Assembly (NCBI GenBank): GCA_028717685.1
Contig: JAQUNI010000001.1
Span: 335,451-399,450 of the forward strand
Direction of reading: 5' to 3'
Length of the DNA stretch: 64,000 bases
Source: Patescibacteria group bacterium
GTDB taxonomy: Bacteria; Patescibacteriota; JAQUNI01
Below the pieces are notes generated by a model. The model ran no database searches. It was not told the origin of the DNA and saw nothing but the letters and a program-made list of their open reading frames with translations. This document shows, one piece after another, positions 1 to 19,814 of the stretch. Positions within the stretch are counted from its first letter, which is position 1. Each line of letters starts with the position of its first letter. The translations under genes were made by a program, and so were the position numbers.

Positions 1-83
1 CCAGGACCAAGAATTTCCAGGATAGACTCCTCTTTTTGAGCAGGAGGAGTATTTTGGTTGACTTTATTTTTATTGTTGAACAT
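1..83 (-). CDS. Partial ORF running off the window start (N-terminus MFNNKNKVNQNTPPAQKEESILEILGP...); function unknown. It lies downstream of the VirB4-N-like gene on the same strand.
   Basis: The reverse complement of 1..83 reads ATG (81-83) followed by an open frame to the window edge. It is not in the ORF track because it has no stop codon within the window. Confidence 0.3.
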   Translation of the reverse strand, partial: MFNNKNKVNQNTPPAQKEESILEILGP

Positions 84-206
84 CAAAACAAATTAAAAAT
101 GAAAAATGAAAAATTTAAAATTACAATTTAAAATGTAAAAAGAATTGGCTTGAAAGATTTTTAATTTTGCATTGTGGTTTTTCATTTTGCATTTTGCATT
201 TTTAAT

Positions 207-959
207 TTATACCACATTCAACTGCTTAATGTCGGTCATCGGCTGATTTTTGGAAGTCGCGGGATTATAAATATTATAAAATAGCTCAATCAATTCTTGG
301 GTGTTCAGGCGCACGCTTTTCAATCCCATGGCATTCAGAAGCCCCTCCACTCGCGCCACGCGTTGATTCAATAAACTATTATATTTTTGAAATTGCTTCT
401 CATTCTGGCTGATCACCTCCGCGGGACGCAATAAATTTCTCATTCTTGCCATCACACCCAATTCTCTCGCTTCCGTAAAGGCGTAAGGAATCACAATGTA
501 AAAACGTTTCCGCATAATCTTTCCCCACTCTACCAGATTGCTCACATATTCCCGATATTCAATGGTCTGAATACGCAAAAGTTCATTAGTCTGCTTTTTC
601 TCTAATTCTTCCAAACTTTTTAGATAACTTTCAATATTGAGTTCCCTGGACTGAATCACAAACTGCATTGGAAAATCTAAAGAGTTGAGAAAATTCTGGT
701 AACCATAAATAACGGAATTTTGTTCTTCCACGCTCTTTAAGGAAAAATTTAAGCTGGAAACCATCAAAATCGCGCGCAAGGTGCCATCCCGCAAAACCAC
801 GGTATTGTCTCTGACACCCGTAATATCTAAAAACTGCTGGGTGGATTTCTTGGTTTTTGCCTTCGCCAGTTTGGGCGAATGAAGGTTCTCTCTCTTATTT
901 TGCGGCTCTTTATTGCCACTTGCAAGGTTCTCTTTTGGATCTTTGTTTTTTGAAAACAT
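207..959 (-). CDS. VirB4/TraC/PrgJ N-terminal-domain-like protein (250 aa); possibly a stand-alone or split conjugation ATPase N-terminal domain.
   Basis: Six-frame ORF. The block FLDITGVRDNTVVLRDGTLRAILMVSSLNFSLKSVEEQNSVIYGYQNFLNSL..FVIQSREL follows the conserved N-terminal pattern of VirB4/TrbE proteins (LxDGS..xxI.G..F.L..EE.....N.L..L). No Walker motifs were seen in this ORF. Confidence 0.45.
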   Translation of the reverse strand: MFSKNKDPKENLASGNKEPQNKRENLHSPKLAKAKTKKSTQQFLDITGVRDNTVVLRDGTLRAILMVSSLNFSLKSVEEQNSVIYGYQNFLNSLDFPMQFVIQSRELNIESYLKSLEELEKKQTNELLRIQTIEYREYVSNLVEWGKIMRKRFYIVIPYAFTEARELGVMARMRNLLRPAEVISQNEKQFQKYNSLLNQRVARVEGLLNAMGLKSVRLNTQELIELFYNIYNPATSKNQPMTDIKQLNVV

Positions 960-1166
960 GAAAGCTTAAAACTTAAAAAGTAAAGCGTAAATAAAAATTT
1001 AAAGCTTGGTGATGAAAATTTTGTAACTTGTAACTTGAAACTTGTAACACAAGGGATGGAATACTTGAGTTACAGGTTATAAGTTGTAAGTTATAAGTTG
1101 TAAAAAATATGGTTTTACATTTTGCGCTGCTGTTTCGCATTTTTATTTTACTCTTTTACGCTTTCA

Positions 1167-1574
1167 TTACGATGTCTCTAGCGCCTTCTCAATATGAGAT
1201 AAACTGCCACGTTTCATATGGGCCTTGACTACCTCTCTTTTCTCCGCGCCTTCGGCAAACGAAACCTTGATCGTATTCTTAGCGGTTAACTTGCCTGTTT
1301 CGCGGCGCCAAATCCGGATCGGAGGCTTTAAATAGAAACCAAAAACAGCTAAAACAAAATAAATAAACGGCCGATCATTGACTTTTATAAACGCGAAAGC
1401 GGAAGTGATCGCGAGGGTCGGAATGGTTATGACAATAAAGAGAGATAAATCAAAGAAAAACCAATAAATCAATTCCACGGCGGCGGCGGCGAGAAAATAA
1501 AGAAACTGCTTAATGGTGAGGGGTCCCACCACCTTGTCTTCTATGTCAATAAATTGGGGAACAGTAGCTTGCAT
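1167..1574 (-). CDS. PrgI-like small membrane protein (type IV secretion / conjugation system component, VirB3-like).
   Basis: 135 aa with two adjacent hydrophobic helices (FLYFLAAAAVELIYWFFF, LSLFIVITIPTLAITSAFAFI) and a basic C-terminus. The architecture and size match the PrgI family, and it sits next to a VirB4-N-like gene. Confidence 0.5.
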   Translation of the reverse strand: MQATVPQFIDIEDKVVGPLTIKQFLYFLAAAAVELIYWFFFDLSLFIVITIPTLAITSAFAFIKVNDRPFIYFVLAVFGFYLKPPIRIWRRETGKLTAKNTIKVSFAEGAEKREVVKAHMKRGSLSHIEKALETS

Positions 1575-1611
1575 AAAAACAAATTAAAAATGAAAAATGA
1601 AAAATCACAAT

Positions 1612-3063: not shown

Positions 3064-3150
3064 TTTAGTTCAAAGTTCAAAGTCAAAAGCCAAACTGAAG
3101 ATTGAAAATGACAATTTTTAATTTTTAATTTTTAACTAATTCTTAATGTA

Positions 3151-3526
3151 TTAATTTTTATTGTTTTGTATTATGGAGATTATCTTAGAAAACATTTTAG
3201 CGTACCCTTGGACTTCTTGCCACAATTGATGGCACTCTTCTTTTACGCTCTCATCGGCTTGAGCAAGCATTCTTAGCCAGTGCATTTGTTTCTTTGGCTT
3301 CTTTCTTACAAATATGGATTTTATTCTTAAAATCCTTCCTTGAAGAAGCTCCGTTAGCTTCCATATAATTTGCCCCTATTGAGGTGCCTGAACGAATTAA
3401 TTGATTTATCAACGGCGAGGCAATGGGATTCTTGCAAGCTTTCTTTGATAAAATAATAATTTCTTCACCCAAACGCTCAAATTTCTCTTCTAAATCATAA
3501 TTAACATCATCTTTAGTTTTCTGCAT
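3151..3526 (-). pseudogene. Four-helix-bundle protein (23S rRNA intervening-sequence protein family), frameshifted.
   Basis: The 91 aa ORF 3251..3526 has the family core ...QLIRSGTSIGANYMEANGASSRKDFKNKIHICKKEAKET. The expected C-terminus HWLRMLAQADESVKEECHQLWQEVQGYAKMFSKIISIIQNNKN continues in another frame down to 3151, implying a 1-nt frameshift near 3280. Confidence 0.55.
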
Positions 3527-3623
3527 GCAATAATTCGTTAATTCAACAAAAATTAGTTAAAAATTAAGAAATAAAAATTAAAAATTGTCTTTAAACTTTG
3601 AATTTTGAACTTTTAACTGAATT

Positions 3624-5018
3624 TTATTCCGCCCAAAATGGGCTATTTACAATATAGCTTCTTACTTCCGGCGATAATTGGTTAAAGTTCTGACGGATAA
3701 TTTGCCGCAATCGCCCTTCTTCAACAGGATCTCCTTTTTGCGCCGCGGCTTCTAAAATAGAAATCGTAATTTCTGAATTTGAGGTATCCACTAACTTTTC
3801 GCTCTGAACAAAATTTTTGTTCAGCAATGGAGAGGAAAATCCATCCCCCTTTTGGAAAGGAGAGTTGGGGGCGGGAGTAACACTCCCCCTGCCCGAGGGG
3901 GAGATGGAGGGGGTGGGAGGTTCCGGCATTCTCTGTGATAATAAATCCGTAGGCTCATTTGGAACAGATGTTTGAGACGGCAATGGCTCTTCTCTTCCGG
4001 CAAATGCCGCGGGTCTTTTAATCTCCTCTGTTGTGGGCGGAGCAAATGACGCGGGCTGCTTTGAAACGGCTCCGGCGGTATAGGGAGAAGAGGCGGCACT
4101 CCCTCTGTCTTGAGGGGGGAGAAAGACACTCCCCCTGCTCGCCTCGCTAAAGCTCCGGCGTAGCGGGCCCGAGGGGGAGGCGGAGGGGGAGGGAGTCTCC
4201 GCGGCTAAAGGCGCCCTGTTTTGCGCTTGGGGAAATCTCGTTTCTCCGTTCGCGGGTCGAATATCCCGTAAATCCTGCGGACCTTGATAACCTTGAGGCG
4301 GTCGGTTCGCTCCTTCCGACGCAGTTTGAGCCAAGGCTTGACCCAATCTCACCTGCTTTCTTTCTTCTATACTCACTCCCTGTTCTTGCGTCATTTCCAT
4401 CTCCGCCATTACTCCCAAAGGCTGCAACGCATTATAAAGCTTTAAAAGCTTTGCCAAAATTATTTTATCCCCTTCTGCTAGCTTTTGAACCTCTGTGTTC
4501 TTATTTAAAAAATCCCTTTCCTCAAGCTCTAAAAGCTGCGGCCGACCCGGATAGCTGTGGATAAAGAGGGCGAGCCACTCGCCAATCGTTAAAGAACCTA
4601 TTTTTTGTCTGTTATCGCGCAAGGCTTGCACCAATTTTTTACAAAGCTCTTCCCGTGGTCCAGTCGGGTTGACCCAAAGTAAAGCTTCCAAACGACCCAA
4701 TACAATCTCCTCATCCAAAGGCAAAACCTCTTTAATCTCGCCTTGAAACAATTGAATAATCTCACTGTCCCTCTGCGCCGGCAAACTGACATAATTAACT
4801 AGAGTCGCCCATTTTTTTAGTTGACCTAAAATTTCCGGCTTCGCGCTAAGCTCTCTTCTTTGTAGGACTTCTTTAAACTCTCTGGACAATTTAAAAGCTT
4901 CCTTATCTTCGCAAAAATAAATAATTTCCCCGACCTGCCGGTTCACTTCCTGCAAAACCTCTGGCCGCGTTATCTCTTCTGAATTAAGAGTGTTTAAATC
5001 TCGCATAGATATTATCAT
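3624..5018 (-). CDS. Hypothetical protein (464 aa). Paralog of 1612..3063, with two in-frame GC-repeat insertions.
   Basis: Long ORF. The segments PSPSASPSGPLRRSFSEASRGSVFLPP and PTPSISPSGRGSVTPAP are encoded by GC hairpin repeats at about 4095-4200 and 3880-3925. Confidence 0.6.
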   Translation of the reverse strand: MIISMRDLNTLNSEEITRPEVLQEVNRQVGEIIYFCEDKEAFKLSREFKEVLQRRELSAKPEILGQLKKWATLVNYVSLPAQRDSEIIQLFQGEIKEVLPLDEEIVLGRLEALLWVNPTGPREELCKKLVQALRDNRQKIGSLTIGEWLALFIHSYPGRPQLLELEERDFLNKNTEVQKLAEGDKIILAKLLKLYNALQPLGVMAEMEMTQEQGVSIEERKQVRLGQALAQTASEGANRPPQGYQGPQDLRDIRPANGETRFPQAQNRAPLAAETPSPSASPSGPLRRSFSEASRGSVFLPPQDRGSAASSPYTAGAVSKQPASFAPPTTEEIKRPAAFAGREEPLPSQTSVPNEPTDLLSQRMPEPPTPSISPSGRGSVTPAPNSPFQKGDGFSSPLLNKNFVQSEKLVDTSNSEITISILEAAAQKGDPVEEGRLRQIIRQNFNQLSPEVRSYIVNSPFWAE

Positions 5019-5053
5019 TATTGTCTATTTCGTAATTAAAGATCATTTCCAAT

Positions 5054-8000
5054 TTAAATTCCGCCCCCCATATTCAGCCGATCTTCGTCCTGACGTAATG
5101 TCTCCGCTCTAGAACTCTCTCCTACTGCATCTCTATCTCTACCTCTACGATCACCAGCACCAGCTATTGATCCTCCCTCACCGCCTGTCTGGCCTACTTT
5201 ATCAAAAAGTTTCTTTAGAATTCTTCTCATATCCTGCGCCTTATCCCTTCTCACCTTGGCAGCCCCTTCCTTCCCCTTCTTTTCTAACCTTTCAGCTTCC
5301 TTCTCCATCTCATCAGTGATACCCAAAAGATCCTTCTGGTTCTCTATATATCTTAAGGATTCAATTAGGCGCGGCTGGGCCCAGCTGCCCAATCTATCTA
5401 CATCTTCATCGGTCAAAGGTTCAACCTGCCCCCTACTGCCAGGAGTAAGACCTAAATATTTAGCCCCAGGCGGCGCATTGGCATATTTTATCTGATCTTC
5501 TTTGGACATATCACTAATACTCATATCGCGGAAGAGGAGACCGGGGTGCCACCTTTTTTGATAAGTGCTTCTCTTTGCTTGTTCAGAGCTAATAATTCTT
5601 GTCCGATTTTGATTATAAGTATCCACGACTGTAGCGACCCCTTCGCGCAATTTCTCATCGGCGATAAGAAAGTTCCCTTTTTTGTCTTTTCTTTTTAAAA
5701 TCTCTTCTTTGGAGTAACCAAAATTGTCCAGCATTAAGTTAGACAGTTTTTCAAAAGAAGTATCCACTCCCTCGACTTTTAATTTTTCCGCCTTTTTGCG
5801 CAAATATTTTTGAAACACAGCCGTCTTCTCTAAAAAAGTTACCTGCCCTGTTGCATTTTCCCCTTCTGCTAATTCAATCTTCTGCAGATCTTCATCATCT
5901 TCAGCCGTGTTAAGAGAGCGATTATCAGCCTCATCAAACGTGGTGGAATAAGAGAATTGAGGATAAGTTTGCTTCATTGCTTCAGCAATATCATTCGCGA
6001 ACATCGAGGCACGATCCGAATCCCCGAAGAGCCTTCTTAAGACCGCCGTATCTGAACCCATCACCGCCTTTCCTCCGGAAAACTTCCGCGCGTACTCCGA
6101 ACCCTTCAAAAGATCGTTAATATCACCTCGAGATAAAATTACCTCCAAAAGCCCCTGGACTTCGGCGGTCAAAGCCTGATCTGAACCAAGCCAACCCTTG
6201 CCTTCCATCTCTTTCAATAACTCGTCCAAACGGGTATAAAGAGCTTCTGTTTGAACATCGCTTTCATTAAGAGAGCTTGCCACTTCTTTCACTGCCGCTC
6301 TCTCCGCGCCGCGAGCATAAAGCTTCTCCCGCTCATAACCCGGACCCTTTTTCTGAAAAAAAGCATGCCAGCCGGCAAGCCTCGGTTGCAGTTCTGTAAT
6401 CCGTGGACCATAAATTTCTTTCTCTCGCCGTTTGCGCCGTGCCTCTGTTACCGCCTTCCACACCTTAGGGCTAACCCATTTCAAATACTTCCCTGCTCTG
6501 CTTTCCATCGCCTTGCCCCAACCATACTTTCCTAAAGCCTTAGCTCCCGCCGCCGCGGGTTTACCCATTGTCAGCCATTCTGACCCTGTTTTCCATAATT
6601 TATTCGCGCCTTGCAGAATTCCGGAAGCGCCCATAACGCTCGCTTTGCGCGCCACATAAAGACCCGCCATCATAAAAGCCACAGCGAAAAGAAGCTTCAT
6701 AAAAACTTGGGGAGAAGCGCCTTGCGCCGGCAATCGCCTTAAAGCCTCGCCTTCTGACAATAAACTCTCTAATGTTCCGGCTTTAGATTTAAAATGAGCG
6801 TCTAAATCCGCGCTTAAAACAATCACCGATAAAGTAATGCAAAAAATCATCACCGGCGCGAAGAAAGCGGTGCGCAAAAAAGTATTCCAAAAGCCAGAGA
6901 CGATTTTCTTCTGCCCGACCGCCATCGCGAGGTAAATCAAAGGTGAAATCGCGGTCATTAAAAGCAGAACCACAATCCGGACAGCCAAAAGGAGCGCGGT
7001 CGCACCATAAACAATTACCGCCGACAGCATATAAAGAATCATTAAAATCTGGGCTCCCAAGACAGAGGCGAGAGTAGTAAAATCAGTGGAGCCGGCAAGC
7101 CTGTCCACGCCAAAAAGGCCTCCAAGACCCGCGGCTCCGAAAAGCGCCTTAATCGGAGCAATCTTATTCGGATTGAGATTCAAGAAAATATCCGACAAAA
7201 TTTGTGAGAAATCAACCGCCACGCCGCAAAGCACCTTGGAAAAATTGATTAAAACCACGCCCGCTAAAAAACCAGGCAGCATTTTCTTTAAACTGCGCTC
7301 CTGAATGCCCAAGACCGTGCAAAAGGCGATATAAAGCAGAACGACGATAAAGAACATATTGGAAAAATCGCGCAAGAACCGCCAGACTAAATCCACAATC
7401 CCAAAATCAATTTGGCTGAAATTAAGCACCCACTCCAAGAAGGCGAAAATAAGAAACAAAAGACCCTGCAAAACACCACAGACGACAAGAGCAATAATGC
7501 CAAAAACCACAGAGACCACCAGCCCAATGGAATTGTTAAAAATTTTCCACGCGACCTGGCTTACTAAACTTCCTGCATTGCAATCATATAAAGGTTGAAT
7601 ATTATTCTTAAAGTCATCAAGGTTATTCTGATATTCTGGGATTTGACCAATATAAAAATTTTCTCCTCTACCCGAATTTACATCCCGCTCCATAAAACAC
7701 GAAGCCGGATCAATAGTATCCCGTGGAGAAGCGCAGTAAGCCTTCTCTCCTATATTAATCTGATAACCTGCGGTTCCTACTGTATAGTTGATTGGTATAG
7801 TTACCACAAAAGCGGGAAGCTCGCGCTCTATTTTAGGAGTGCAGGGTTTTTTGGAATCCAAACAAACCTGGGGCAATATTTGCCCGCCTTTTTCATAGAC
7901 CCCCTTTCCCCCGCCGCAAGCATTGGCTATGGTTGCGCAGGTAAAAACAACAGCAGTTTGAGTACTGGAAACCGAAGAGGGAATCTCTGCACAAAATGCT

Positions 8001-8425
8001 GGCGCCTTACAACCCACTTTTCCTGAATTAAAAAGAAATTGATATGACTTCGCTTTGTCAGCGGCTGGAATTAGGTTGATATCAAGAAGAGAAGGAGAAA
8101 AAAGACTGAAGTTAAATTTTTTTTCTCCAGCATTTCCATAACCATTGCACTTCTCACAATCATCTGTACCTACTATACATAGGTTATTGTCTACGCTTGC
8201 ACAGTAATTTTCTTGTACCTGTGTAATACCACTAGTATAAATACTAGAAGCGCAGGCTTTATTTTGATTAGTCTCACATGCCGTCTCTCCCTTTGTCAGT
8301 GGATCGTTAGCACCATCACATGGCACCATTTCGGCCTGCGCTGTCCCAGATCTGCTAAACAATCCCAAGCCCGCGAGGCAGAGAAGAATCAATATTTTCC
8401 AAAAATTTTTGGTTTTAATTTGCAT
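5054..8425 (-). CDS. VirB6/TrbL-like polytopic membrane protein with a Cys-rich extracellular N-domain and a long charged cytoplasmic C-domain (about 1124 aa counted from Met29).
   Basis: Signal peptide MQIKTKNFWKILILLCLAGLGLFSRSGTAQA. About 330 aa with many Cys, then at least six hydrophobic helices over about 300 aa (VirB6/TrbL-like core), then a 500 aa Lys/Glu/Arg-rich tail. The track ORF extends to 8509, but the signal-peptide Met at 8425 is the likelier start. Confidence 0.5.
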   Translation of the reverse strand: MQIKTKNFWKILILLCLAGLGLFSRSGTAQAEMVPCDGANDPLTKGETACETNQNKACASSIYTSGITQVQENYCASVDNNLCIVGTDDCEKCNGYGNAGEKKFNFSLFSPSLLDINLIPAADKAKSYQFLFNSGKVGCKAPAFCAEIPSSVSSTQTAVVFTCATIANACGGGKGVYEKGGQILPQVCLDSKKPCTPKIERELPAFVVTIPINYTVGTAGYQINIGEKAYCASPRDTIDPASCFMERDVNSGRGENFYIGQIPEYQNNLDDFKNNIQPLYDCNAGSLVSQVAWKIFNNSIGLVVSVVFGIIALVVCGVLQGLLFLIFAFLEWVLNFSQIDFGIVDLVWRFLRDFSNMFFIVVLLYIAFCTVLGIQERSLKKMLPGFLAGVVLINFSKVLCGVAVDFSQILSDIFLNLNPNKIAPIKALFGAAGLGGLFGVDRLAGSTDFTTLASVLGAQILMILYMLSAVIVYGATALLLAVRIVVLLLMTAISPLIYLAMAVGQKKIVSGFWNTFLRTAFFAPVMIFCITLSVIVLSADLDAHFKSKAGTLESLLSEGEALRRLPAQGASPQVFMKLLFAVAFMMAGLYVARKASVMGASGILQGANKLWKTGSEWLTMGKPAAAGAKALGKYGWGKAMESRAGKYLKWVSPKVWKAVTEARRKRREKEIYGPRITELQPRLAGWHAFFQKKGPGYEREKLYARGAERAAVKEVASSLNESDVQTEALYTRLDELLKEMEGKGWLGSDQALTAEVQGLLEVILSRGDINDLLKGSEYARKFSGGKAVMGSDTAVLRRLFGDSDRASMFANDIAEAMKQTYPQFSYSTTFDEADNRSLNTAEDDEDLQKIELAEGENATGQVTFLEKTAVFQKYLRKKAEKLKVEGVDTSFEKLSNLMLDNFGYSKEEILKRKDKKGNFLIADEKLREGVATVVDTYNQNRTRIISSEQAKRSTYQKRWHPGLLFRDMSISDMSKEDQIKYANAPPGAKYLGLTPGSRGQVEPLTDEDVDRLGSWAQPRLIESLRYIENQKDLLGITDEMEKEAERLEKKGKEGAAKVRRDKAQDMRRILKKLFDKVGQTGGEGGSIAGAGDRRGRDRDAVGESSRAETLRQDEDRLNMGGGI

Positions 8426-8689
8426 TTTGGCAATCCCCAAATGTGATTTAAGATCGTTGGCTCCCCAGTACACTCTTAGGGCGGAACTATGGAGCCAACA
8501 AGTTAACAATAACCCAAAATTCCCCTCCTAGTCGTTGAATTGAAAACTAAAAGGATTTTTCTTTTCCTTTTTATTTTGGATAATTCTTCTGGCTCTATAA
8601 TTTATTTTGCGCTTTTCGCTTTTAACTACGGCTTTTTATACTATACCACAAAAAAACAATCTCGTAAAAACGAGATTGTTAGTTATCCA

Positions 8690-8975
8690 CATAAAATTTT
8701 GAATCCGAGCGTTGGCTCCACACAGACTTAGACCCCTCCCACCCTCCCCTTGGTAAGGGGAGGTGAAATGCGCTCCCCCTGCTTTCCAAGGGGGGAGAAA
8801 GATTCTCACTCCCCCTGCCAGGGGGGAGGCGGAGGGGGAGGAAGCTTCAGAACCCCACCTAACCTCCCCTTTGAAAGGGGAGGTTAATGCACACTCCCCC
8901 TGCCCGAGGGGGAGATGCCTGCCCGCCATCGCTTCGCTTCAGGCGAGGCGGGGGGGAGGGAGTAAAAAGACGCGA
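8690..8975. repeat. Tandem cluster of GC-rich hairpin repeats (CCTCCCCTT-N-AAGGGGAGG, CTCCCCCTGCCCGAGGGGGAG, GCCCGCCATCGC..GCGAGGCGGG).
   Basis: Several perfect or near-perfect short palindromes sit in an otherwise AT-rich context. The same units recur at more than 12 other sites in the window. Confidence 0.8.
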
Positions 8976-9017
8976 AAATAAAAAACCCAGTATATACTCT
9001 TGAAGTATTATACTGGG
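8976..9017 (-). terminator. Rho-independent terminator of the FGE-domain lipoprotein gene.
   Basis: On the minus strand the sequence reads CCCAGTATAATACTTCAAGAGTATATACTGGG followed by TTTTTTATTTT. The identical module is found at 18218..18261. Confidence 0.6.
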
Positions 9018-9028
9018 ATTGAGAAATT

Positions 9029-10124: not shown

Positions 10125-10240
10125 TGCGCCTTTAGGCGGGGAGAAAAGAGGGGGTGGGAGCGGCACTCCCCCTGCTCGCCGCGCTAACGCTCCGGCGTAG
10201 CGAGCCCGAGGGGGAGATGGAGGGGGTCTAAGGGCGCGGG
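10125..10240. repeat. GC-rich palindromic repeat element (long form: ACTCCCCCTGCTCGCCGCGCTAACGCTCCGGCGTAGCGAGCCCGAGGGGGAG...).
   Basis: Near-identical copies occur at 2053-2140 and 4135-4200. Confidence 0.8.
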
Positions 10241-10241
10241 G

Positions 10242-13200
10242 TTAATCCCCAAGCTTCGCCCTCACATAATTTAAGACTCTTTTAATCCTCTGCCCTAATG
10301 TTAAAAACCTTTGAGTACTAGTGCCGAGAGTCTTTGATAACTCTATAGGTACCGATTCAGCCCAATTATTAGATGTATCCTGATCATAATGATCGTCTGT
10401 TTCTATTAAAGAGACCGAGACTTTAGCTTTTTTATAATATTCTGGAATAATGGGACCAAAGCAATAGCCATTGAAATCAATATTTTTGGCTGCCCCTGGC
10501 AGAAGCTTACCCGTAATTTGTTTCTCAAGCTCAGTTATGTGCAACATCTGACCTGGCACCACCCCACCATCTTCATCAAGTATGGTCACGTAAGCATCGG
10601 CATCTTCTACTGTATTTGCCAAATTTAATTCCTCCGATCCAGCATTAACAAGCTCTACACTTCCGTCTATGCAATAATTCCCTCCCCTTTGAGTCTTACG
10701 AGCTTGCACGGATTCAACAACTAAATCTGGTTCTTTAACTTCCGCGAGACCAGAACATTTTCTATGATCATTATTATTATCGTCATTCCATACGCCCGGC
10801 GTCCCGTTAGACTTTATTTCAGTCACATGTACTTCAAATTGGAAGAATCCCCACTTTTTCATGCCTAAATTAATTGGATAATTATCCTCCTTTTCTAATG
10901 GTGGACTGCCCTCCGCCAGATTGTACGAAGGGGCGCTCCAATGATAAGCTTCGGCACCGCCACCATAACATCCTTGGGGATCAGTCTGACCAGTTGGTTC
11001 CTTATCGAAGTAATACACAGTATAACTATAACTTAAATTATTAACATCTTCGGTGCCTTCATTAATAATTTGAAAATAACCATGTAAGATTCTAGCACCG
11101 CTCTGGCTATCTACACTGGCATAGCTTGCACCCTGCTTTATCCATTTTTGATATTGAATTGCTATATTTGTAATAGAAGGCTTTGGTTGGGGCGGTAGCG
11201 GAGCTGTGCATGCTGTGCCATCATTCTTTAATAATTGCGCGCCCAATTTCACAGGCAAGTTCGCGGCAATGATAAATTCTGTACCCGGTTTGTTTGGAGA
11301 ATTATCCGCTTCCTTGCCTTTTAAGGTAAAGGTCAGAGTGTCGTTGTTATTATAAGGATGACCGGCTGTGTCATTCATCGGGATGGTAACATAAAAAAAT
11401 AATTGTTTTGACTCCTTGGCATAAGAAACTATTTCGGGGGTAGTCAAATTGATGCCTGTTTTTGTTCCCGGACCGTCAGTTAAAGTAAAGGTGCTTTTCA
11501 CATCTCTAGATGCTGTATTCATCAAATTGACGGTAAGTAACAAATATTCGCCCGGATTAGCTCTCCAATCACCTTCTGTGCTCGCGACACAGCTTGCGTG
11601 CAGAGAGCTGCATTTATCCGCCGAGGGGCAAGTATATTGGTATTGGAAAGGCGAAGGAGACGGCGTGCCGGTGGGGGGTTTATACCAGTCGCCTTTATCA
11701 CCCACCATAATCTTGTAATCTGTGGCATTATAAAAACTATTCATACACATTGAGAGATAACGTGCTGGCTCGTATGTCGCTTGGGGGAAACTATTGCATT
11801 GGTCTTTGTTGTATAAAGTCAAATAAGCCGTATCCTGACCAGCTTCGCAGAAATAATCAGGCAGACCTGCTTTATTATTCCTTTCATTGAATTCTGGAAT
11901 CACACCCTCTTTTTCGGTGAAATTAGCATCCACCTTTTCATCCGCAAAAACCGCAAAGCGCATATTTTTAGCCTCTCTGACTTCAAAATTAGGTATAATA
12001 AACTCTGCAATCCCTTTGCTGCCCTTTTTCTCATCGTAAAAATCAAACTCATCGGCGAGAGTCCAAGGGATTTCAGTAACTCGTTGATATTTTTTCTTGA
12101 TGCAGTCAATATAATTTTTGTAAGAATCATCTGCCGCATTAGCGCCTGGTTGGTTGGTCTCGTCCGGATTCTCAAAATACTTGGCATAAGTTTCCAGTGC
12201 GCCGCTTGAGGCCGGTGATTTTGATTCACAGTAACATTCGTCAACCGACAGAATAGGATCTGTTGCGGGTGTGCCGCAATAATTGCCCCGATTCCAGCTC
12301 CAGTCCCAAGTCATATGATGTGTCTCTGTTGTCGGTTTGCCGTAGCAAACATAAACGCCCATGGGGATAACCGTGCCCTTTGGAATGGCGCGATCCCCTT
12401 GATTTTTAATTTTGAATTTTAAATCTAATTTTGATCCCTGAACCACGCCAGTAGTGCCAGCAGGAGATGTATTTATTTGAAAGTCTAACCCTGCCGGCAC
12501 CAAATCCGGCTTTTTCAAAATATTGCCATCATCCTCGCTATTGTCGGCAGAGTTTTCGCAACCCCACACATCAGCCGGAAAATCAGTATACCCATCTTTA
12601 TCATTATCCACGCCGTCGCTGCAGCGCGGAAATACCGGCACGGTCAAATCCTGATGGAAGATGATGCGCCCATATTGGTCCCGAAGGTATAAGGGAACCT
12701 TAGCGTTGCCGTCAGATTTAGCATCATCTTTCACGCGCAGGTTGAAATCCTTGTTTAATATTAGAGTTTGCCCCGAGACAATCATGCCAATCTTAATTGA
12801 ACTTTTATTGTCTCCCGAATCATTCTTGCCGCTTCCGACATATTGAAAAACTGGAGAATTTTCTAAATCAATAAAAAGATCCAAACCGCTAAGACTGCCC
12901 GAGTGCAAGGGACGGATATCTTTTAAAGTAACCCCAATTTCAATTTCCTCGCCGGGATTCGCCACTCCTGTGTCATCGCCGTCCGGATGGTCGCCATCGC
13001 CGCGCAAATCAGCGGTCTTGAGTCCGTCACTTATTTTATATTCCGCGGTGACCGGTGAAGCCGACACATTCGCAATCTGGACAATGCGGTTATTGAGCTT
13101 ATTTAAATCCTTATTTTTCGCATCTTTGTCAGAATCAAAAACCATCATCAAAGCGTGGGTGCCGGGCTCAACAGCGGTCCACGTAACTGTGGCAATATCA

Positions 13201-16121
13201 CAAGCCGGCTTGTTGAACCAAGGCTCAGAAGAGCAGTTGATGGGCATTTCTATTGTGTCTTCGTAGACTTTTTTTGCTTTCACACTTGCGATTTCACTTC
13301 CTGCTTCATTAACAAGATCGCCAGTATAAAAATTAGCTTTCCCAAAGAAACCTTCCACGCCCCCTTCCACTCCTGCCAAATCATACAAGGTTACATGGAC
13401 CTTATCCGCGGATTTGTCGAGACCATCATTTCTATAGCGCATTATAATCGGCACTTCCTGACCTTCATAAAATATAGGCGTAGGCGCGAATTGCCGGTCA
13501 AAAACATTCATATTCTGATACGGCGGCGGGTCTTGCGGCAGTTCCAGCATATAATTTTGGGCAAGGTAACCCCTGCCGCAGGGAGCGGGGTTAGAGCTAT
13601 CTGAAGTGAAATATGTTTCTTGATGGCAATTTCTCGCCGCGGTGGTCGGATCAGGTTTATATTTCTCCCCGCTCCAAAGTTGTTTTTCTGTCACTTCGGG
13701 TAACTCATATCCTTGAAAAAATTCTGAAGCGCCATTGACTTCTTTTTTGAAAACAATATTAATATAAACGCTTTTTGTTATTTCGCTCCAAATCTGGTTC
13801 CTTTCGGCAAGACTTAAATCCGTGCTTAAATCCCAGCGGGCGATATGGACTCCTGCCGGCATATTATTAAAAACCAATTTGCGGTAAAGTTTAATATTTT
13901 CATTGGCTGTGTCAGTCGGCCTAAGATAGATTTCCACCGTAACATTGGATTTTTCAGTCAAGCGATAAGGAAATTCTAAAAAATCATAGCGTCCATCCGT
14001 GGATAAATTTATTGTTTCAGTCTTGATTTGATTTTCCTCGGGTTTTAAATTACAAAAATTCAAAAGCTCCAAAACCTTACGAATACCTGATTTAAAAGCA
14101 TAAAAGGTTGCCAAATCGCCAAAAGTGTCTGTAACACCACTTTCAGAAGCCCAATTGCCAACTGCGTCTGTCACTTCTTCAACCACTCCTCCTAATCCTA
14201 CCGTATCCCCCGCCCTAATAAGCAGCCATTTTGCTGCCCTTCCCAAAAGAGACACGCCTTTCTTTCCTGCTTCTGCGACAGATTTAGTTAAGAGAGGCTC
14301 AATTAACTCCTTGTAAACTACAAACTGGGCTAAAGTAGCAACAGAAAGCAAACTTTCTTTCTTATTAACAGAACTTGCTTGAGCTTGGAATTCACCTTGA
14401 TTATTTTTGATCAAAAGAGACGTATAACCATTGGGGTCAGTCTTTGCCGCTTCCTCTCGGGTTTTATTTAAAGCCTCCAAAGATTCTAAATCTAACGCGC
14501 TGACTTGTTTTCTTAACTCTTCCGGCCAAGGATTGCCAACTGTTTCATCTTTATTGGGAACCATTATATAATTTTGCGTGTCAACCCCTTTTCCATCTAT
14601 TGTCAATCGTTCTCCTTTTTTGTCTCCTACATCAAAAATCCAACAAATCAATTTCTTTCCAAGATCTGAAACCCAGCCCACTATCTCACCCAAAAAATTA
14701 GTGTCCACCTGTTTTAAGGCGGCGATTAAACACTGCCCGGCGCTTGGTCTTTGAGGTTCGCCCATTTTCCCCATCGTAGTCCCCAAGTCCGGCTCTATCA
14801 CTTCAAAGCCGACAGGGCATCCAGCGAGAGCCCCTGTAGTCGCTCTTTTAACTTTAAAATTGACATTGGTAAGGTAAGTCTTGCCTAAATCATAGATAAT
14901 GCGGGAGACGCCGGAGAGATCAGTGGCGTCGCCTGCGATTTTCAGTTTGCTCTCAATTAAATCATTGACCATCACCTTCACTTTCTGACCTGGCCTTTTA
15001 ATTAAACCGGTCCAGCCCGAAGCCAAGGGATCAGAAATCGCCCTGGAAGTAAAGGCAATGCTCGCGGGATACACCTCTACAGGCTCTTGCCAAACATTGG
15101 GCTTCACTAAAGTTTCAATCACGTCAATCTTATATTGAATATCACAAAACAAAGCAAAGGGAAAATCGGCGTCCCAGCTCCAAATATCATAACGGTAGAA
15201 ACCATTAGATAATGGATAAACATAATAAGTGCCTTTGCTGGCTAAATTATATCCAGAAATTGCCCCACTTGTTGCCGGGCTCTGAATTGGGGTGTATCCC
15301 CAGCCCTTGAGTTTACTATCAAGCTCGCTCTTTTTAAGATTTTCCCCCCTCTTCAGAAAATAAGATTCTATCGCCTCCGGCATATCGGTTACCTTGCGGC
15401 CGTCGTTATGACCCTCGGAAATTATATAATCCCGATTTCCCTCCGCTTCAGACGACGCCGCCACATCCATTGTCGTGCCCACGGCGCCCCAGAGCAATCC
15501 TTGAGGCGTAGACCAAATTCTTGCCATATTCTTGCTCCAATAATCGCGATCCGAAATAGAAGGGGGGCGGTCCTCTCCGCTCATCTCTTTGGAAACCTTA
15601 TCCAACTCTTTCAAAACAGAATGGCTTAATTTATTGCCGGTCTCTTTAAGTCCGCGGTAGGCTAAATTCTCCAAGCCCAAGAAAGCGTTTAAGAGGGGCG
15701 CGTCTATCTTAGCGTCTCCCACTTCACTAGCGACCCAATTATGGAATTTAGCAAAGCCGAAATCCAAATAAGGCACAAAGACTTGGCGGTTGTAATCCTG
15801 CACTAAATATTCGTCTTCAAAGCTCTTGACCACTTGAGAATAAAAGCGGTCTACCACGGTATTAAGGGAATCCTTGATAATTAATTTCAAAAAATCTCCA
15901 TAATTAAAAGAAGCGAGCCCCGAGAAAAAAGTTTTCATCGGGTCTAAAATCAAGCCTTGCAGCACTCCTTTAGATTGCGTGTCCCCTGTTGCCGCCGTCT
16001 CTGCAGCACGGGCTGGCAACGCCCCTCCCAAGGGGCTCCCCAAAAAACCAATCAGCAAAAGAAGCGCAATTCCCTTGCGATGTTTGTAAAGCAAATGATT
16101 GTGGAAGAAATTTTTGTCCAT
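10242..16121 (-). CDS. Giant secreted/surface protein (1959 aa), function unknown.
   Basis: Uninterrupted 5.9 kb ORF with an N-terminal signal peptide (LLLLIGFLGSPLGGALPARAAE). No catalytic motifs were recognised. Many Asp/Gly/Cys-rich segments. Confidence 0.7.
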   Translation of the reverse strand: MDKNFFHNHLLYKHRKGIALLLLIGFLGSPLGGALPARAAETAATGDTQSKGVLQGLILDPMKTFFSGLASFNYGDFLKLIIKDSLNTVVDRFYSQVVKSFEDEYLVQDYNRQVFVPYLDFGFAKFHNWVASEVGDAKIDAPLLNAFLGLENLAYRGLKETGNKLSHSVLKELDKVSKEMSGEDRPPSISDRDYWSKNMARIWSTPQGLLWGAVGTTMDVAASSEAEGNRDYIISEGHNDGRKVTDMPEAIESYFLKRGENLKKSELDSKLKGWGYTPIQSPATSGAISGYNLASKGTYYVYPLSNGFYRYDIWSWDADFPFALFCDIQYKIDVIETLVKPNVWQEPVEVYPASIAFTSRAISDPLASGWTGLIKRPGQKVKVMVNDLIESKLKIAGDATDLSGVSRIIYDLGKTYLTNVNFKVKRATTGALAGCPVGFEVIEPDLGTTMGKMGEPQRPSAGQCLIAALKQVDTNFLGEIVGWVSDLGKKLICWIFDVGDKKGERLTIDGKGVDTQNYIMVPNKDETVGNPWPEELRKQVSALDLESLEALNKTREEAAKTDPNGYTSLLIKNNQGEFQAQASSVNKKESLLSVATLAQFVVYKELIEPLLTKSVAEAGKKGVSLLGRAAKWLLIRAGDTVGLGGVVEEVTDAVGNWASESGVTDTFGDLATFYAFKSGIRKVLELLNFCNLKPEENQIKTETINLSTDGRYDFLEFPYRLTEKSNVTVEIYLRPTDTANENIKLYRKLVFNNMPAGVHIARWDLSTDLSLAERNQIWSEITKSVYINIVFKKEVNGASEFFQGYELPEVTEKQLWSGEKYKPDPTTAARNCHQETYFTSDSSNPAPCGRGYLAQNYMLELPQDPPPYQNMNVFDRQFAPTPIFYEGQEVPIIMRYRNDGLDKSADKVHVTLYDLAGVEGGVEGFFGKANFYTGDLVNEAGSEIASVKAKKVYEDTIEMPINCSSEPWFNKPACDIATVTWTAVEPGTHALMMVFDSDKDAKNKDLNKLNNRIVQIANVSASPVTAEYKISDGLKTADLRGDGDHPDGDDTGVANPGEEIEIGVTLKDIRPLHSGSLSGLDLFIDLENSPVFQYVGSGKNDSGDNKSSIKIGMIVSGQTLILNKDFNLRVKDDAKSDGNAKVPLYLRDQYGRIIFHQDLTVPVFPRCSDGVDNDKDGYTDFPADVWGCENSADNSEDDGNILKKPDLVPAGLDFQINTSPAGTTGVVQGSKLDLKFKIKNQGDRAIPKGTVIPMGVYVCYGKPTTETHHMTWDWSWNRGNYCGTPATDPILSVDECYCESKSPASSGALETYAKYFENPDETNQPGANAADDSYKNYIDCIKKKYQRVTEIPWTLADEFDFYDEKKGSKGIAEFIIPNFEVREAKNMRFAVFADEKVDANFTEKEGVIPEFNERNNKAGLPDYFCEAGQDTAYLTLYNKDQCNSFPQATYEPARYLSMCMNSFYNATDYKIMVGDKGDWYKPPTGTPSPSPFQYQYTCPSADKCSSLHASCVASTEGDWRANPGEYLLLTVNLMNTASRDVKSTFTLTDGPGTKTGINLTTPEIVSYAKESKQLFFYVTIPMNDTAGHPYNNNDTLTFTLKGKEADNSPNKPGTEFIIAANLPVKLGAQLLKNDGTACTAPLPPQPKPSITNIAIQYQKWIKQGASYASVDSQSGARILHGYFQIINEGTEDVNNLSYSYTVYYFDKEPTGQTDPQGCYGGGAEAYHWSAPSYNLAEGSPPLEKEDNYPINLGMKKWGFFQFEVHVTEIKSNGTPGVWNDDNNNDHRKCSGLAEVKEPDLVVESVQARKTQRGGNYCIDGSVELVNAGSEELNLANTVEDADAYVTILDEDGGVVPGQMLHITELEKQITGKLLPGAAKNIDFNGYCFGPIIPEYYKKAKVSVSLIETDDHYDQDTSNNWAESVPIELSKTLGTSTQRFLTLGQRIKRVLNYVRAKLGD

Positions 16122-16254: not shown

Positions 16255-17751
16255 TTATTCTTTGTTATCAGCGCTATATTTCTTAGATAATTCATCTAAA
16301 TTCTTCTGCATTAATACTTCTAAACTGTCAAAAGACTTCAATTTGCCGATAATAGCATCCGCCTGTCCGGTATCGCTGCTGCGCAAAGAATTTTCATCCG
16401 TCACCTCCTCATAGATGCGGATAATGGTTAAAAAGATTTTATGGATTTCTTTAGTATCCCGCGGCACGGCGATTTTCAGCAGCTCCGCATCAATATTCTT
16501 GAGCGCGTTATAGGTTTGGTTAATGACAGTATAATCATTCTGGGCAATCTGATTTTTTAAAGTAGCGGCGTCAATACTTTGTAAACCGGAAAAATTTTTT
16601 TCAAAAATACCATTGACATCTTGGAAATATTTTTGGATGTCTTCTGCTTTACTGGTATCAAAAATCTTGAGTTCGCTATCAGAGATTTCCGCGGGCGCGG
16701 AAACAGGAATCGCGTTAAACATATCCTGCATTGAACTTTGCATAGAGTCGGAACTTAAAATCTTTTTCTGCATTTCCAGTTTTCCCGAGACATCCACATT
16801 GCCGGACTGCGCCTTAGCAATATCTTCCTCAGACAAACCCAGCTTTTGCAGGGCGCTGTAATCATTGCCGGTTAAATTGCTAAAGTCCGTTTGCCCGCCT
16901 TGGTCCAGCGCGCATTTGCCGCCGGAAGCGCCGGCATCAACCGAACCAGCAGCGCACGAAGCGCTGGTCGTGGACGCGGAGGCAACAGCGGGAGCGGCAC
17001 CAGAGGCGGAGGGGGTGGGAGCAAAACTCACCGCCGGATTTTTCTTCACGGCTGGAGTCAAAGGATCATAGCCATTTTTTACTTCCACGCCGTCAGGATA
17101 ACCATCGCCATCCGTATCCTTCTGGAAAGGATTAGTAGCGAGTTTCTCTTCAATCTCGTCCGAGAGTCCGTCTTGGTCAGAATCAATGCTCAAAGGCAAA
17201 GAATTCGCGGTAACATTGTTATTGCCTGAAGTATTAAAAACACGGCTGTCAGTTTTGGCGGCGATTTGAGGCACGATTGCCCCTCCCTCTTCTTGCGCGG
17301 TCTCTGTCAAAGCCGCGGCTTGCACTGTCGAAATGGAATTTCCCTTTCCGCTTTCGCTCGCTAATGTTTCGCTCATCCTGTTTAAGGAAGCCTGCGTCTC
17401 TTCAAGATTAATTTTGCGGTCTAGAAAAATAAAACCCCCAATAGCGCCGGCGATTATGATTAAAATCGCGACAGTGACTACTTGGAGGGTTGACCTTAAA
17501 ACTGTTTTGGTTTTTTGATTTTGAAGAAAATTAAAACCCCGCACCACTTTCGGTTCAGGGCTTGTAGGATTTGGTTCTTTAATACTCGCGTCTTCAGAAT
17601 AACCGCGATACCAATTTTCTAAATAAGAAGGCAGTCCTCCCGGTAAAGCCGTTTCCGGCGCATAGCTTCCCGCGTTACTAAAATTGGGGTTCGGATTATT
17701 TAAAACCTCAGAATGCCCGGGATAACCCGAGAAATCAAAATGATTTTTCAT
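16255..17751 (-). CDS. Membrane-anchored protein with calcium-binding (thrombospondin type-3-like) Asp-rich repeats, 498 aa.
   Basis: Single transmembrane helix (VVTVAILIIIAGAIGGFIFL) followed by DSDQDGLSDEIE...DTDGDGYPDGVE repeats. Confidence 0.6.
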   Translation of the reverse strand: MKNHFDFSGYPGHSEVLNNPNPNFSNAGSYAPETALPGGLPSYLENWYRGYSEDASIKEPNPTSPEPKVVRGFNFLQNQKTKTVLRSTLQVVTVAILIIIAGAIGGFIFLDRKINLEETQASLNRMSETLASESGKGNSISTVQAAALTETAQEEGGAIVPQIAAKTDSRVFNTSGNNNVTANSLPLSIDSDQDGLSDEIEEKLATNPFQKDTDGDGYPDGVEVKNGYDPLTPAVKKNPAVSFAPTPSASGAAPAVASASTTSASCAAGSVDAGASGGKCALDQGGQTDFSNLTGNDYSALQKLGLSEEDIAKAQSGNVDVSGKLEMQKKILSSDSMQSSMQDMFNAIPVSAPAEISDSELKIFDTSKAEDIQKYFQDVNGIFEKNFSGLQSIDAATLKNQIAQNDYTVINQTYNALKNIDAELLKIAVPRDTKEIHKIFLTIIRIYEEVTDENSLRSSDTGQADAIIGKLKSFDSLEVLMQKNLDELSKKYSADNKE

Positions 17752-17939
17752 TTTTGTTTTTGATCGCCTCTAATTTTGGAGGTGAAAAATTTTTATTTTT
17801 ATTTTAGCGACTCTTGAAAAGCTAATTTTGGCTTCTCAAAAATCAGAGAAAAATCCCCTAGAAGCAGCTTATTTGCCCTCTAGTTATCTAAATATAGTAT
17901 ATCACATCTAAATCTTCAAGTCAATGGGGGGTAATGGGG

Positions 17940-18215
17940 ATAAAAATGAATAATCCCCGCACCTTTAGGCGGGGAGATATCTGTTGGCTCCATAGTCCCC
18001 GAGTGAAGCGAGGGGTCCGCCCGCTAATGCCTGAAGCCGCGCCCGACAGCGCAAGACGCAGTCGTTGCGGGCGGGCGCAAGCGATGGCGGGCAGGCTGTG
18101 GAGCCAGAATGCAAGACGGAGGTATTAAAGATAAAAGTATTAGCAGAAAATGACGGTCTGCATTTTGGCTCCATAGGGCTAGCGCCACTATGGAGCCAAC
18201 TATTCAAAAAAAGGC
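17940..18215. repeat. Repeat cluster containing TTGGCTCCATAG-N11-CTATGGAGCCAA palindromes and a GCGATGGCGGGC unit.
   Basis: There is a perfect 12-bp inverted repeat at 18165-18203. Related GGAACTATGGAGCCAAC units occur at 8480-8500 and 36362-36380. Confidence 0.7.
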
Positions 18216-18217
18216 GC

Positions 18218-18261
18218 GAAAATAAAAAACCCAGTATATACTCTTGAAGTATTATACTGGG
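18218..18261 (-). terminator. Rho-independent terminator of the second FGE-domain lipoprotein gene (duplicate of 8976..9017).
   Basis: The same hairpin-plus-T-run module is present, and the roughly 90 bp flanking sequence is shared with 8965-9065. Confidence 0.6.
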
Positions 18262-18272
18262 AATAAGAAAAA

Positions 18273-19814
18273 TCATTTGGCGTCCATGGCACAACGAAAA
18301 CCTCTGTCATAACCGGGTCGATCAGGAGTATCTTTATCCCGCCACGCCACGCGTAATAAAAATGGTATGGCGTCGCAAGAGCCTCCTCTTATAACCTTTT
18401 CTTTACCGCCGTCCGGACCTTTCGGATTAATCCGGGGTGAATTTGCATAATAGCGGCTATCGTACCAATCGGCACACCATTCAGATACATTGCCTGCCAT
18501 ATCATACAAGCCATAGCCATTGGGAGAAAAGCTACCTACAGGCGCTGTATCTTCATAGCCATCAATTAATTTTTTACCACCAATGGATCCCACGATCTCA
18601 TATTTTATACCTCCAATACTAAAACTAGCATTACGGTCCCCAAAATTACATTGACTACCATCGGGGTTCTGATCACCCCAAGGGAACTTCTTCCCTACCA
18701 GTCTACCTCGCGCCGCTTTTTCCCATTCTGCTTCCGTAGGCAAACGTTTTCCAGCCCATTTAGCATATGCCGAGGCATCATACCAATTAACGCGTACCAT
18801 AGGTTGATTGGGCGCAGAACTATTCCAAAAATCCGGTGCCTTATGTCCAGTCGCATCTATAAACTTCTTATACTGCGCATTGGTAACTTCATAAACATCT
18901 ATGTAAAAGGCATCTAAAAAAACTTCATGTGCCGGTGTCTCTGTCTTGGCAACATCTAAAACCCCATTCCACTCCTGTTGAATCGTGTCCCTCCAGCCCG
19001 GGTCCTTAATGTCAGCAATCTTAAATTCGCTAAAATCACCATGCCCCATCTCCGACATAAACTCCTCCGCCAAAGTGTTGATATCAGAAGTATTAGTTCC
19101 CATCTGAAATTCACCAGCCGGGATTAAGACCATCGGCGCATCTTCTTTAATGACGGGCTCTTGGACTTTATCGTCCCCGTTATCTTTATTCCCATTTTCC
19201 ACTACTGGGACATCTTTCCCATTTGCCTTTGTGTCATCTCCAATTTCCTTGCCACTGGCGACGGCTTGCTCAATCTCTTTTTGCACTGAAATTACAACCT
19301 GTCTATTTCCGTAAACCAAATTCCACTCCCCTATTGGTTCAAGAGGCACAACCGTGAATAAACCTACTAATTCCGTACTTTTTGGTTTAATGACAAACGT
19401 GATCTCATTATCTGAATTCAAAAGATAATTCATTGCCGTGCCGATGGATGATTCTACAGAAGTATAGTCAAAAACAAACACTTCTTTTTGGGAATAAATT
19501 ACAGCGCCCTTCACATCATTTATAATGAACGAAGAGCCATCTATAGTGATCTCTTTGTTACCCAAATTACTGATAGAGACGAGGAACCATGCCTCATAAC
19601 ATTCTTCTCCTGCTATTTTTCCTAAAACAAAATCTGGTTTCGCTTCTGCAAGCACTATTGCCTGCACCTCTATCTCCACCTGCGGATTAGAGTCTTCGGA
19701 CACTATCGGATTCAAATTATCTCCACAACCAACCAACAACACTGCAAGAAACAAAATAACGGAAAATTTTAATCTTAACATTTCAATCACCTTTTTATCC
19801 TTTATGAACTTCAT
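18273..19814 (-). CDS. Lipoprotein with a C-terminal FGE-sulfatase domain and a long N-terminal extension, 513 aa (paralog of 9029..9880).
   Basis: Lipobox LVGCG. FGE motifs: FYIDVYEVTNAQYKKFIDATGH, RLPTEAEWEKAARG, GLYDMAGNVSEWCADWY and RGFRCAMD. Confidence 0.8.
   Translation of the reverse strand: MKFIKDKKVIEMLRLKFSVILFLAVLLVGCGDNLNPIVSEDSNPQVEIEVQAIVLAEAKPDFVLGKIAGEECYEAWFLVSISNLGNKEITIDGSSFIINDVKGAVIYSQKEVFVFDYTSVESSIGTAMNYLLNSDNEITFVIKPKSTELVGLFTVVPLEPIGEWNLVYGNRQVVISVQKEIEQAVASGKEIGDDTKANGKDVPVVENGNKDNGDDKVQEPVIKEDAPMVLIPAGEFQMGTNTSDINTLAEEFMSEMGHGDFSEFKIADIKDPGWRDTIQQEWNGVLDVAKTETPAHEVFLDAFYIDVYEVTNAQYKKFIDATGHKAPDFWNSSAPNQPMVRVNWYDASAYAKWAGKRLPTEAEWEKAARGRLVGKKFPWGDQNPDGSQCNFGDRNASFSIGGIKYEIVGSIGGKKLIDGYEDTAPVGSFSPNGYGLYDMAGNVSEWCADWYDSRYYANSPRINPKGPDGGKEKVIRGGSCDAIPFLLRVAWRDKDTPDRPGYDRGFRCAMDAK

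Follow-up and report, generated by a model that had tools for sequence, protein, structure and literature searches.

A probable chromosomal type IV secretion operon with an extended VirB6-like protein in a Doudnabacteria-like member of the Patescibacteria

The core operon and its closest described relatives

Patescibacteria's type IV secretion system (T4SS) is already a known system (Wang et al. 2023, PMC10633639; Quinonero-Coronel et al. 2025, PMC12102498). In Southlakia epibionticum the homologous machine is essential for epibiotic growth, has neither a relaxase nor a coupling protein, and has been suggested to export proteins or to serve the interaction with the host (PMC10633639), while a neighbourhood of TrsD, PrgI, VirB6 and KsgA genes is typical of the loci of this clade (PMC12102498). 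Here we consider a block of genes encoded on the minus strand of positions 1-19814 of a 64,000-nt stretch of DNA (the window, to whose positions all coordinates refer unless a relative is named). Taken as a whole, the block is probably to be read as follows: the promoter-proximal portion of a T4SS operon of the Patescibacteria clade, chromosomal and related to the MPF_FATA machines of Gram-positive conjugative elements, occupies bases 1-8425, whereas a giant secreted protein and a calcium-binding membrane protein encoded further upstream are a candidate surface arm, and two FGE-sulfatase lipoproteins are neighbours. A preliminary description, made from the sequence alone, had proposed a T4SS inner-membrane module interleaved with these surface proteins; the open reading frames (ORFs) it named are present on the minus strand where it had placed them, and the module finds support in hidden Markov model (HMM) matches of the PrgI-like and 250-aa proteins and in structural and family-level HMM evidence for the 1123-aa protein.

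The window consists of chromosomal DNA of Patescibacteria (candidate phyla radiation, CPR), in which the genes for 16S rRNA (interrupted by an insertion), tRNAs, KsgA, NusA, IF-2, trigger factor and an H+-pyrophosphatase are found. The 1123-aa VirB6-like protein has the same sequence as NCBI PHW01_01760 ('Patescibacteria group bacterium'), and its nearest named relatives, at 74-90 % identity, belong to Candidatus Doudnabacteria. Conservation was assessed by searching the window proteins against 80 fetched loci of the VirB6-like family, the downstream counts being restricted to 47 loci in which 8 kb or more lie 3' of the VirB6-like gene and the upstream counts to 50 in which 9 kb or more lie 5' of it. 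On the minus strand the core genes follow the order VirB6-like, E464, C483, PrgI/VirB3, TrsD-like and VirB4, where E464 and C483 denote two soluble proteins named after their lengths, and the order was the same in all loci compared. This core is strongly conserved in relatives, as the preliminary description had required of the block: PrgI was found in 44, TrsD in 43, VirB4 in 40 and a C483-like protein in 38 of the 47 loci with sufficient downstream sequence.

Like SEML1_0006-0019 of Southlakia epibionticum and the Patescibacteria clade at large (PMC10633639, PMC12102498), the locus is chromosomal, keeps the VirB6-like/PrgI/TrsD/VirB4 order with KsgA nearby, has no adjacent relaxase or coupling protein, and is built from a monoderm-type set of components. 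Unlike them, it adds an N-terminal Cys-rich ectodomain to the VirB6-like protein, has the genes for the giant secreted and TSP3-repeat proteins upstream, and showed no VirB2-like pilin array among the scanned ORFs of the window, which included part of the small ones; in the clade, VirB2-like pilin genes near virB4 are frequent, not universal. The N-terminally extended VirB6, the want of a pilin-like gene among those found in the window, a giant protein that is nearly an orphan and a duplicated pair of FGE genes are variants at the level of the lineage. The MPF_FATA plasmids pGO1, pSK41 and pIP501 (TrsC-TrsD-TrsE) have the same VirB3-like/TrsD/VirB4 triplet, TrsD being specific to the pGO1-type subclass, in which no VirB6 is recognisable (PMC12102498). 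These plasmids, however, transfer DNA; along with a relaxase and a coupling protein they carry a VirB1 hydrolase and VirB8-like proteins, and none of these was found here. The core of the Prg/Pcf system of pCF10 from Enterococcus faecalis is likewise comparable, with PrgH (VirB6), PrgI (VirB3) and PrgJ (VirB4), although pCF10 too is a conjugative plasmid equipped with a relaxase and a coupling protein.

The last gene of the block is cut by the window edge: its 5' end (1..83, minus strand) comprises 27 codons from an ATG at 83-81. A contig of the same organism in Logan (L001) extends this ORF to 187 aa, and the resulting fragment matches, at E 9.4e-118, a 659-aa protein of the closest relative (L004), where the gene is complete and carries P-loop_TraG (E 2.5e-24), AAA_10 and CagE_TrbE_VirB domains. 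On the strength of these matches, the ORF starting at base 83 encodes the VirB4-family ATPase of the cluster, which the preliminary description had not seen in complete form in the window. Directly upstream, a 250-aa protein (207..959) matches the NCBIfam model VirB4_plasma, built on the VirB4 of mycoplasma integrated conjugative elements (ICEs), at E 5.5e-12 over model positions 95-233 of 894, and the TrsD/TraD model NF041427 at E 6.1e-7, with 29 bits against a curated NCBI cut-off of 200; its precomputed Pfam assignment is TraC-like (PF26593). Homologs at E of about 1e-70 occur in 55/80 loci, always immediately ahead of VirB4. It had been described as a stand-alone VirB4 N-terminal domain, and it does match the N-terminus of a VirB4 model; a recently split VirB4 fragment is nonetheless ruled out, as BLASTP and hhalign revealed no similarity to the VirB4 N-terminus of the same genomes, and the neighbouring VirB4 has a CagE_TrbE_VirB region of its own. 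Judged by these comparisons, the protein represents a separate TrsD-like family, remotely similar to the N-terminal regions of VirB4 and TraC. The third core component, a 135-aa protein (1167..1574) with transmembrane (TM) helices at residues 25-43 and 45-63, belongs to the PrgI family, the equivalent of VirB3 (Pfam PF12666, 32.9 bits vs. a gathering score of 27), and was recovered in 56/80 loci. PrgI, TrsD-like, VirB4 and VirB6/TrbL-type components of a T4SS of the Patescibacteria, related to MPF_FATA, are all present.

Some components were not encountered, which counts against the reading given above: among the window ORFs scanned, no VirB8-, VirB1- or VirB2-like protein and no coupling protein was found. 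For VirB8, which is rarely found in the phylum (PMC12102498), neither Pfam nor NCBIfam gave a VirB8/PrgL match among the ten block proteins, and a structure-level comparison, made for C483 alone, returned no match. Among the block proteins and the scanned small ORFs of the window there was no T4SS_pilin or TrbC match, the DNA past VirB4 lying outside the window. The reported absence of a relaxase and a coupling protein held for the scanned window ORFs of at least 390 aa, with a 517-aa ORF (22224-23777) unscanned, whose equivalent in the relative L087 is a radical SAM protein; both functions could be encoded elsewhere in the genome.

The extended VirB6-like protein and the soluble accessory proteins

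The VirB6-like gene (5054..8425) has its true start at an ATG at 8425 and encodes 1123 aa, so that the size of 1.1 kb first given to it should read 1.1 k amino acids. From its N-terminus the protein shows a signal peptide, an ectodomain that is rich in Cys and roughly 290 aa long, six to seven TM helices (residues 328-620) and a long hydrophilic, cytoplasmic tail of some 530 aa, and its TM domain contains the invariant motifs W..RD..NMFF, LINFSK, ID.SQ and RI..LW...SPL. That it might be an unrelated membrane protein held in synteny, for instance a transporter or a flippase-like protein, rather than the VirB6 equivalent, is suggested by the lack of any significant TrbL/VirB6 match of the protein or its family profile in Pfam, NCBIfam and PDB sequences, a result that tells against the VirB6 assignment, by a weak BrkB match (E 0.014) and by the medium confidence of the structural model. 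We consider this highly improbable in view of several observations. When members of the family were scanned singly, TrbL/VirB6 was the only Pfam family to recur (9/60, best E 7.2e-7), and the top natural fold match of the TM-domain model, out of 48,164 chains, was TrwI/VirB6 of R388, with which sequence identity is about 9 %. The position of the gene relative to VirB3 and VirB4 is invariant, and corresponds to that of the annotated VirB6 in the Saccharibacteria order VirB6-x-VirB3-TrsD-VirB4 given in Table S3 of the recent survey (PMC12102498), also with respect to TrsD. Since its homologs match TrbL and its gene position fits, and since its TM topology is polytopic and TrwI/VirB6 is its best fold match, the 1123-aa protein is best regarded as the VirB6 equivalent, as had been proposed at the outset.

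The architecture also matches a described type. Extended VirB6 proteins, mentioned in a 2025 FEMS review (PMC12857230), combine at least five hydrophobic helices with large hydrophilic domains, and the signal peptide, Cys-rich ectodomain and hydrophilic tail of the 1123-aa protein fit this type, as does its TrwI/VirB6-like TM fold, whereas the signal peptide with its Cys-rich ectodomain and the charged tail of about 530 aa have no characterised counterpart in it. A scan of species-representative genomes with the TM-domain alignment returned at least 570 stretches encoding the family, which is therefore a divergent extended VirB6 family mostly missed by standard profiles and yet widespread. In Table S3 of the survey, the entries for one genome of the ABY1 class, in which Falkow-, Uhr- and Magasanikbacteria-type genomes are placed, do not list its gene of this family as VirB6 beside TrsD and VirB4 (PMC12102498). 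Just upstream of the VirB6-like gene, 63/80 loci (39/50 of those with sufficient upstream sequence; e.g., L012 9193-9870) encode a small conserved protein, some 210 aa long, that has two TM helices and is recognised by the motif LLxxAWxNLIxSFGLT...H.FL...FCKLGxEW; it gives no Pfam pilin match. Its absence from the window and from the closest relative is a further difference from most of the related loci. Fusion of this small protein into the ectodomain of the VirB6-like protein was tested and found not to be the case.

Two soluble proteins are encoded between the VirB6-like and PrgI genes. C483 (1612..3063, 483 aa) is specific to Patescibacteria, has no predicted TM helices, and has homologs directly upstream of PrgI in 45/80 loci. 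Its AlphaFold2 model shows three helical modules, with a C-terminal module (372-483) of predicted local distance difference test (pLDDT) values >90 and a disordered stretch at residues 198-371, a linker that contains a GC-rich repeat insertion; a Foldseek comparison of the model with the PDB gave no fold match (best E 0.8). E464 (3624..5018, 464 aa) is matched at E 1.4e-19 by an HMM derived from the ORFs found directly after the VirB6-like gene in 63 loci, and its middle part likewise derives from GC-rich repeats. The two had been introduced as paralogs of unknown function. Compared pairwise they have no detectable similarity (BLASTP E 0.19), and their apparent likeness is due to the insertion of the GC-rich repeat in both genes; at the level of the families, a remote relationship does emerge in an N-terminal domain, about 90 aa long, that is common to both (hhalign 96.3 %, E 1.6e-9).

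The repeat element lies within the C483 gene (2036-2149), within the E464 gene (3840-4200) and in the intergenic stretches 8727-8953 and 10121-10238. Dispersed GC-rich hairpin repeats of the same kind, made of CCCCTC...GAGGGG units around the common core GGCGTAGCGAGCCCGAGGGGGAG, also occur at 17954-17977, 33767-33814 and 58334-58459, and where they fall inside the C483 and E464 ORFs they are translated as linkers rich in Pro, Ser and Gly. The cluster at 8727..8953, assigned to neither strand, separates an FGE gene from the VirB6-like gene, and a 97-aa ORF at 8636-8929 composed of the repeats is probably spurious. Between C483 and E464 there is, in addition, a truncated gene (3251..3526, minus strand) of the four-helix-bundle 23S rRNA IVP family (Pfam PF05635, E 1.8e-12; TIGR02436), flanked by AT-rich inverted repeats (3064-3154 and 3538-3621). 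In L004 its homolog (12577-12867) occupies another intergenic site, between TrsD and VirB4. The gene is probably a small mobile insertion and not a part of the T4SS.

The giant protein, its TSP3 partner and the FGE lipoproteins

Upstream of the core, the gene at 10242..16121 encodes a giant protein of 1959 aa with a Sec signal peptide, in agreement with its first description as secreted. Its N-terminal domain of about 500 aa is conserved and the remainder is variable, with stretches that look CARDB-like by eye. An exhaustive HMMER search of 1.84 billion representatives returned relatives in four clusters, alignable over the N-terminal 500 aa or so only, and a word-indexed search returned a single one; the relative P0035 carries a Pfam CARDB domain. 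The 1959-aa protein itself matches no Pfam family at E <0.1, an adhesin family or other, and no PDB sequence, bears no similarity to PrgB of pCF10, from which the locus differs in this respect as well, has neither an LPXTG motif nor a C-terminal TM helix, and shows no internal repeats in a self-BLAST. The gene preceding it (16255..17751) encodes the calcium-binding-repeat membrane protein of the preliminary description, 498 aa long, with a single TM helix (residues 91-109) and bacterial TSP3 repeats (Pfam TSP3_bac, E 1.5e-9). With a promoter-like site at 17924-17896, it probably heads a unit of two genes that the giant gene completes.

The pair has counterparts elsewhere. An ORF of at least 1500 aa lies upstream on the same strand in 32/50 loci, and in 14 loci it is preceded by a protein with a TM helix and TSP3 repeats, often also by KsgA. 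The order in ABY1-type loci is KsgA, the TM+TSP3 protein (some 225 aa), a giant of 2200-2900 aa with a signal peptide, the small two-TM protein and the VirB6-like gene, and the upstream layout of the window is the same, minus the small two-TM protein and without homology of the giant. In the two Doudnabacteria-like relatives L084 and L087, which carry the pair, a TSP3 membrane protein again stands ahead of the giant gene, and in one relative KsgA, a radical SAM gene and a methyltransferase precede giant and TSP3 genes, as they do in the window. An IS481-family transposase (L084 11456-12403) directly follows the giant gene of L084 at the end of the contig, and probably explains the assembly break between that gene and the T4SS operon.

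The link of the giant and TSP3 proteins to the T4SS, which the preliminary description had proposed, is accordingly one of recurrent position, without homology, and a number of results speak against it. No similarity between the 1959-aa protein and the ABY1 giants at the same position was found by phmmer, hmmsearch --max or hhalign; the 498-aa TSP3 protein matches its relatives mostly within the common TSP3 repeats; the upstream giant ORF is wanting in 18/50 loci; and the giant gene has its own promoter-like site, with an FGE gene that bears a promoter and a terminator lying between it and the T4SS operon. Most of these points are shared by an alternative in which the T4SS core is real while the giant, TSP3 and FGE genes are unrelated surface-protein neighbours, keeping their position by descent and not by function, an explanation to which we grant considerable weight, if short of an even chance, as the promoter-like and terminator-like sites separate the units, the FGE genes are confined to the lineage of the window, and nearly the whole window is co-directional anyway. 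It has to account, however, for the recurrence of the order KsgA, TM+TSP3, giant and VirB6-like gene among proteins that are about 30 % identical in their best-conserved domain, a level at which neutral synteny seldom survives. Surface adhesin genes likewise open Gram-positive T4SS operons such as that of pCF10, the large adhesin genes (PrgB) being located upstream of the T4SS genes there. PrgB is named as an MPF_FATA adhesin in the survey of the clade, which detected no adhesins (PMC12102498). That the TSP3 and giant proteins act as a surface or host-contact arm is thus a tentative proposal, with odds that we would place somewhat below an even chance. A bolder version is doubtful: the TM+TSP3 protein and a hypervariable giant would constitute a conserved, unrecognised extracellular arm of the T4SS (a 'missing adhesin', the determinant of host specificity or the main secreted substrate), changing so rapidly that its position alone is retained, with the Cys-rich VirB6 ectodomain replacing the two-TM protein as docking partner in the lineage of the window.

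Nor is the core 'fused' to the extracellular proteins, as it had appeared to be at the outset: promoter-like and terminator-like sites divide the block into several transcription units, and the surface proteins are encoded by separate genes in separate units. The co-directionality of some 20 kb that had been noticed is real but constitutes weak evidence, because the minus strand carries almost every gene between 1 and about 52 kb, and GC skew is negative throughout.

The two FGE-sulfatase lipoproteins exist as described, one of 283 aa (9029..9880, E 1.6e-69), the duplicated copy, and one of 513 aa (18273..19814, E 2.1e-60), the ancestral copy beside the Ham1 gene. They score 234.9 and 205 bits against PF03781 (gathering score 23.3), each with an LVGC lipobox, and are 44 % identical to each other. 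Their flanks are duplicated as well (9913-10027 = 19837-19951; 8964-9036 = 18208-18280), and the duplicated segment of about 1.1 kb (8964-10027, 18208-19951) comprises the FGE gene, its promoter, a hairpin and a copy of the Ham1 3' end, so that the two copies bracket the TSP3 and giant pair as direct repeats. Ahead of each gene stands a TTGACA-17-TATAAT promoter that is perfect (12/12, at 10023-9995 and 19947-19919) and has an extended -10 TG, and the duplicated downstream hairpin (18208-18280) is read as a terminator, although the terminator scan did not detect it. FGE genes stand beside the T4SS in 1/80 loci, that of the closest relative, and at the same position in L084. Being restricted to the lineage, provided with promoters and terminators of their own and absent from 79/80 related loci, they are placed outside the machine, and the view that they belong to the apparatus is not upheld: they are independent, lineage-specific neighbours that arose by recent local duplication. 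A role as ring components like PorK/GldK of the type IX secretion system was also ruled out, the scores against TIGR03525 (125 and 134 bits, with partial coverage) being far below the equivalog cut-off of 350.

Chromosomal setting and proposed role

Other features of the window lie outside the block. The 16S rRNA gene (37040-39080, minus strand) measures 2041 nt vs. a 1533-nt model, implying some 500 inserted nt, and is followed by a tRNA-Ala gene, with no 23S gene within the window. An apparent tRNA-Phe(GAA) gene, unreported by ARAGORN and with exons at about 28176-28142 and 27887-27849, is split in its anticodon loop by a group I intron (27892-28141, minus strand; Rfam RF00028, 88 bits). Two large proteins of 594 aa (PGA_cap with FG-GAP-like repeats) and 794 aa (DUF3160) are encoded at 28415-32727 (minus strand), and a PGA_cap gene is also found near the giant/TSP3 pair of L087. 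A protein with LysM and peptidase M23 domains, a domain pair reported for some VirB1-like hydrolases of Patescibacteria, is encoded at 41061-42470 (minus strand), 33 kb away from the T4SS genes. Among the loci collected, many third-party annotation (TPA) metagenome-assembled genomes titled 'uncultured Gammaproteobacteria bacterium' (L005, L006, L008 and others) carry the Patescibacteria-type locus and are probably mislabelled.

The chromosomal surroundings bear on whether the block is a resident cellular machine or the remnant of an ICE. In favour of a remnant, homologs of the components serve as conjugation proteins in monoderm plasmids and ICEs, the block houses the mobile-looking four-helix-bundle gene and dispersed repeats, and a transposase adjoins the giant gene of L084. 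Yet relaxase, coupling protein and integrase were all not found in the scanned window ORFs, the GC content of the block equals that of the neighbouring chromosome, the neighbourhood of KsgA, radical SAM and methyltransferase genes is kept in distant species, and the clade as a whole is monophyletic, chromosomal and mostly without a relaxase (PMC12102498). An ICE origin of this kind is in our judgement very improbable, the least probable of the alternatives weighed here.

For a resident T4SS, established T4SS biology suggests that the VirB6-like protein would form the membrane channel or the base of a stalk, and that PrgI would anchor the hexameric VirB4 ATPase to the membrane, while TrsD and the two soluble helical proteins may be clade-specific cytoplasmic accessories. 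As a relaxase and a coupling protein were not found nearby and the setting is a housekeeping chromosome, the most likely role of the machine is to move proteins or to support contact with the host, and not to conjugate DNA. From their conserved position, the TSP3 protein and the giant unit could supply a cell-surface arm, in which the fast-evolving giant may act as a host-contact adhesin or a secreted partner, in a role comparable to that of the surface adhesins of pCF10.

The family-level assignment of VirB6 and the syntenic giants are small additions to a known system. The T4SS of Patescibacteria is the first shown to be essential for its own carrier bacterium, and the locus adds a Doudnabacteria-like example of it. 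The two conserved soluble accessory families with their common N-terminal domain provide leads for annotation, and the recurrent giant protein and calcium-binding membrane protein encoded directly upstream are candidates for a part in host recognition.

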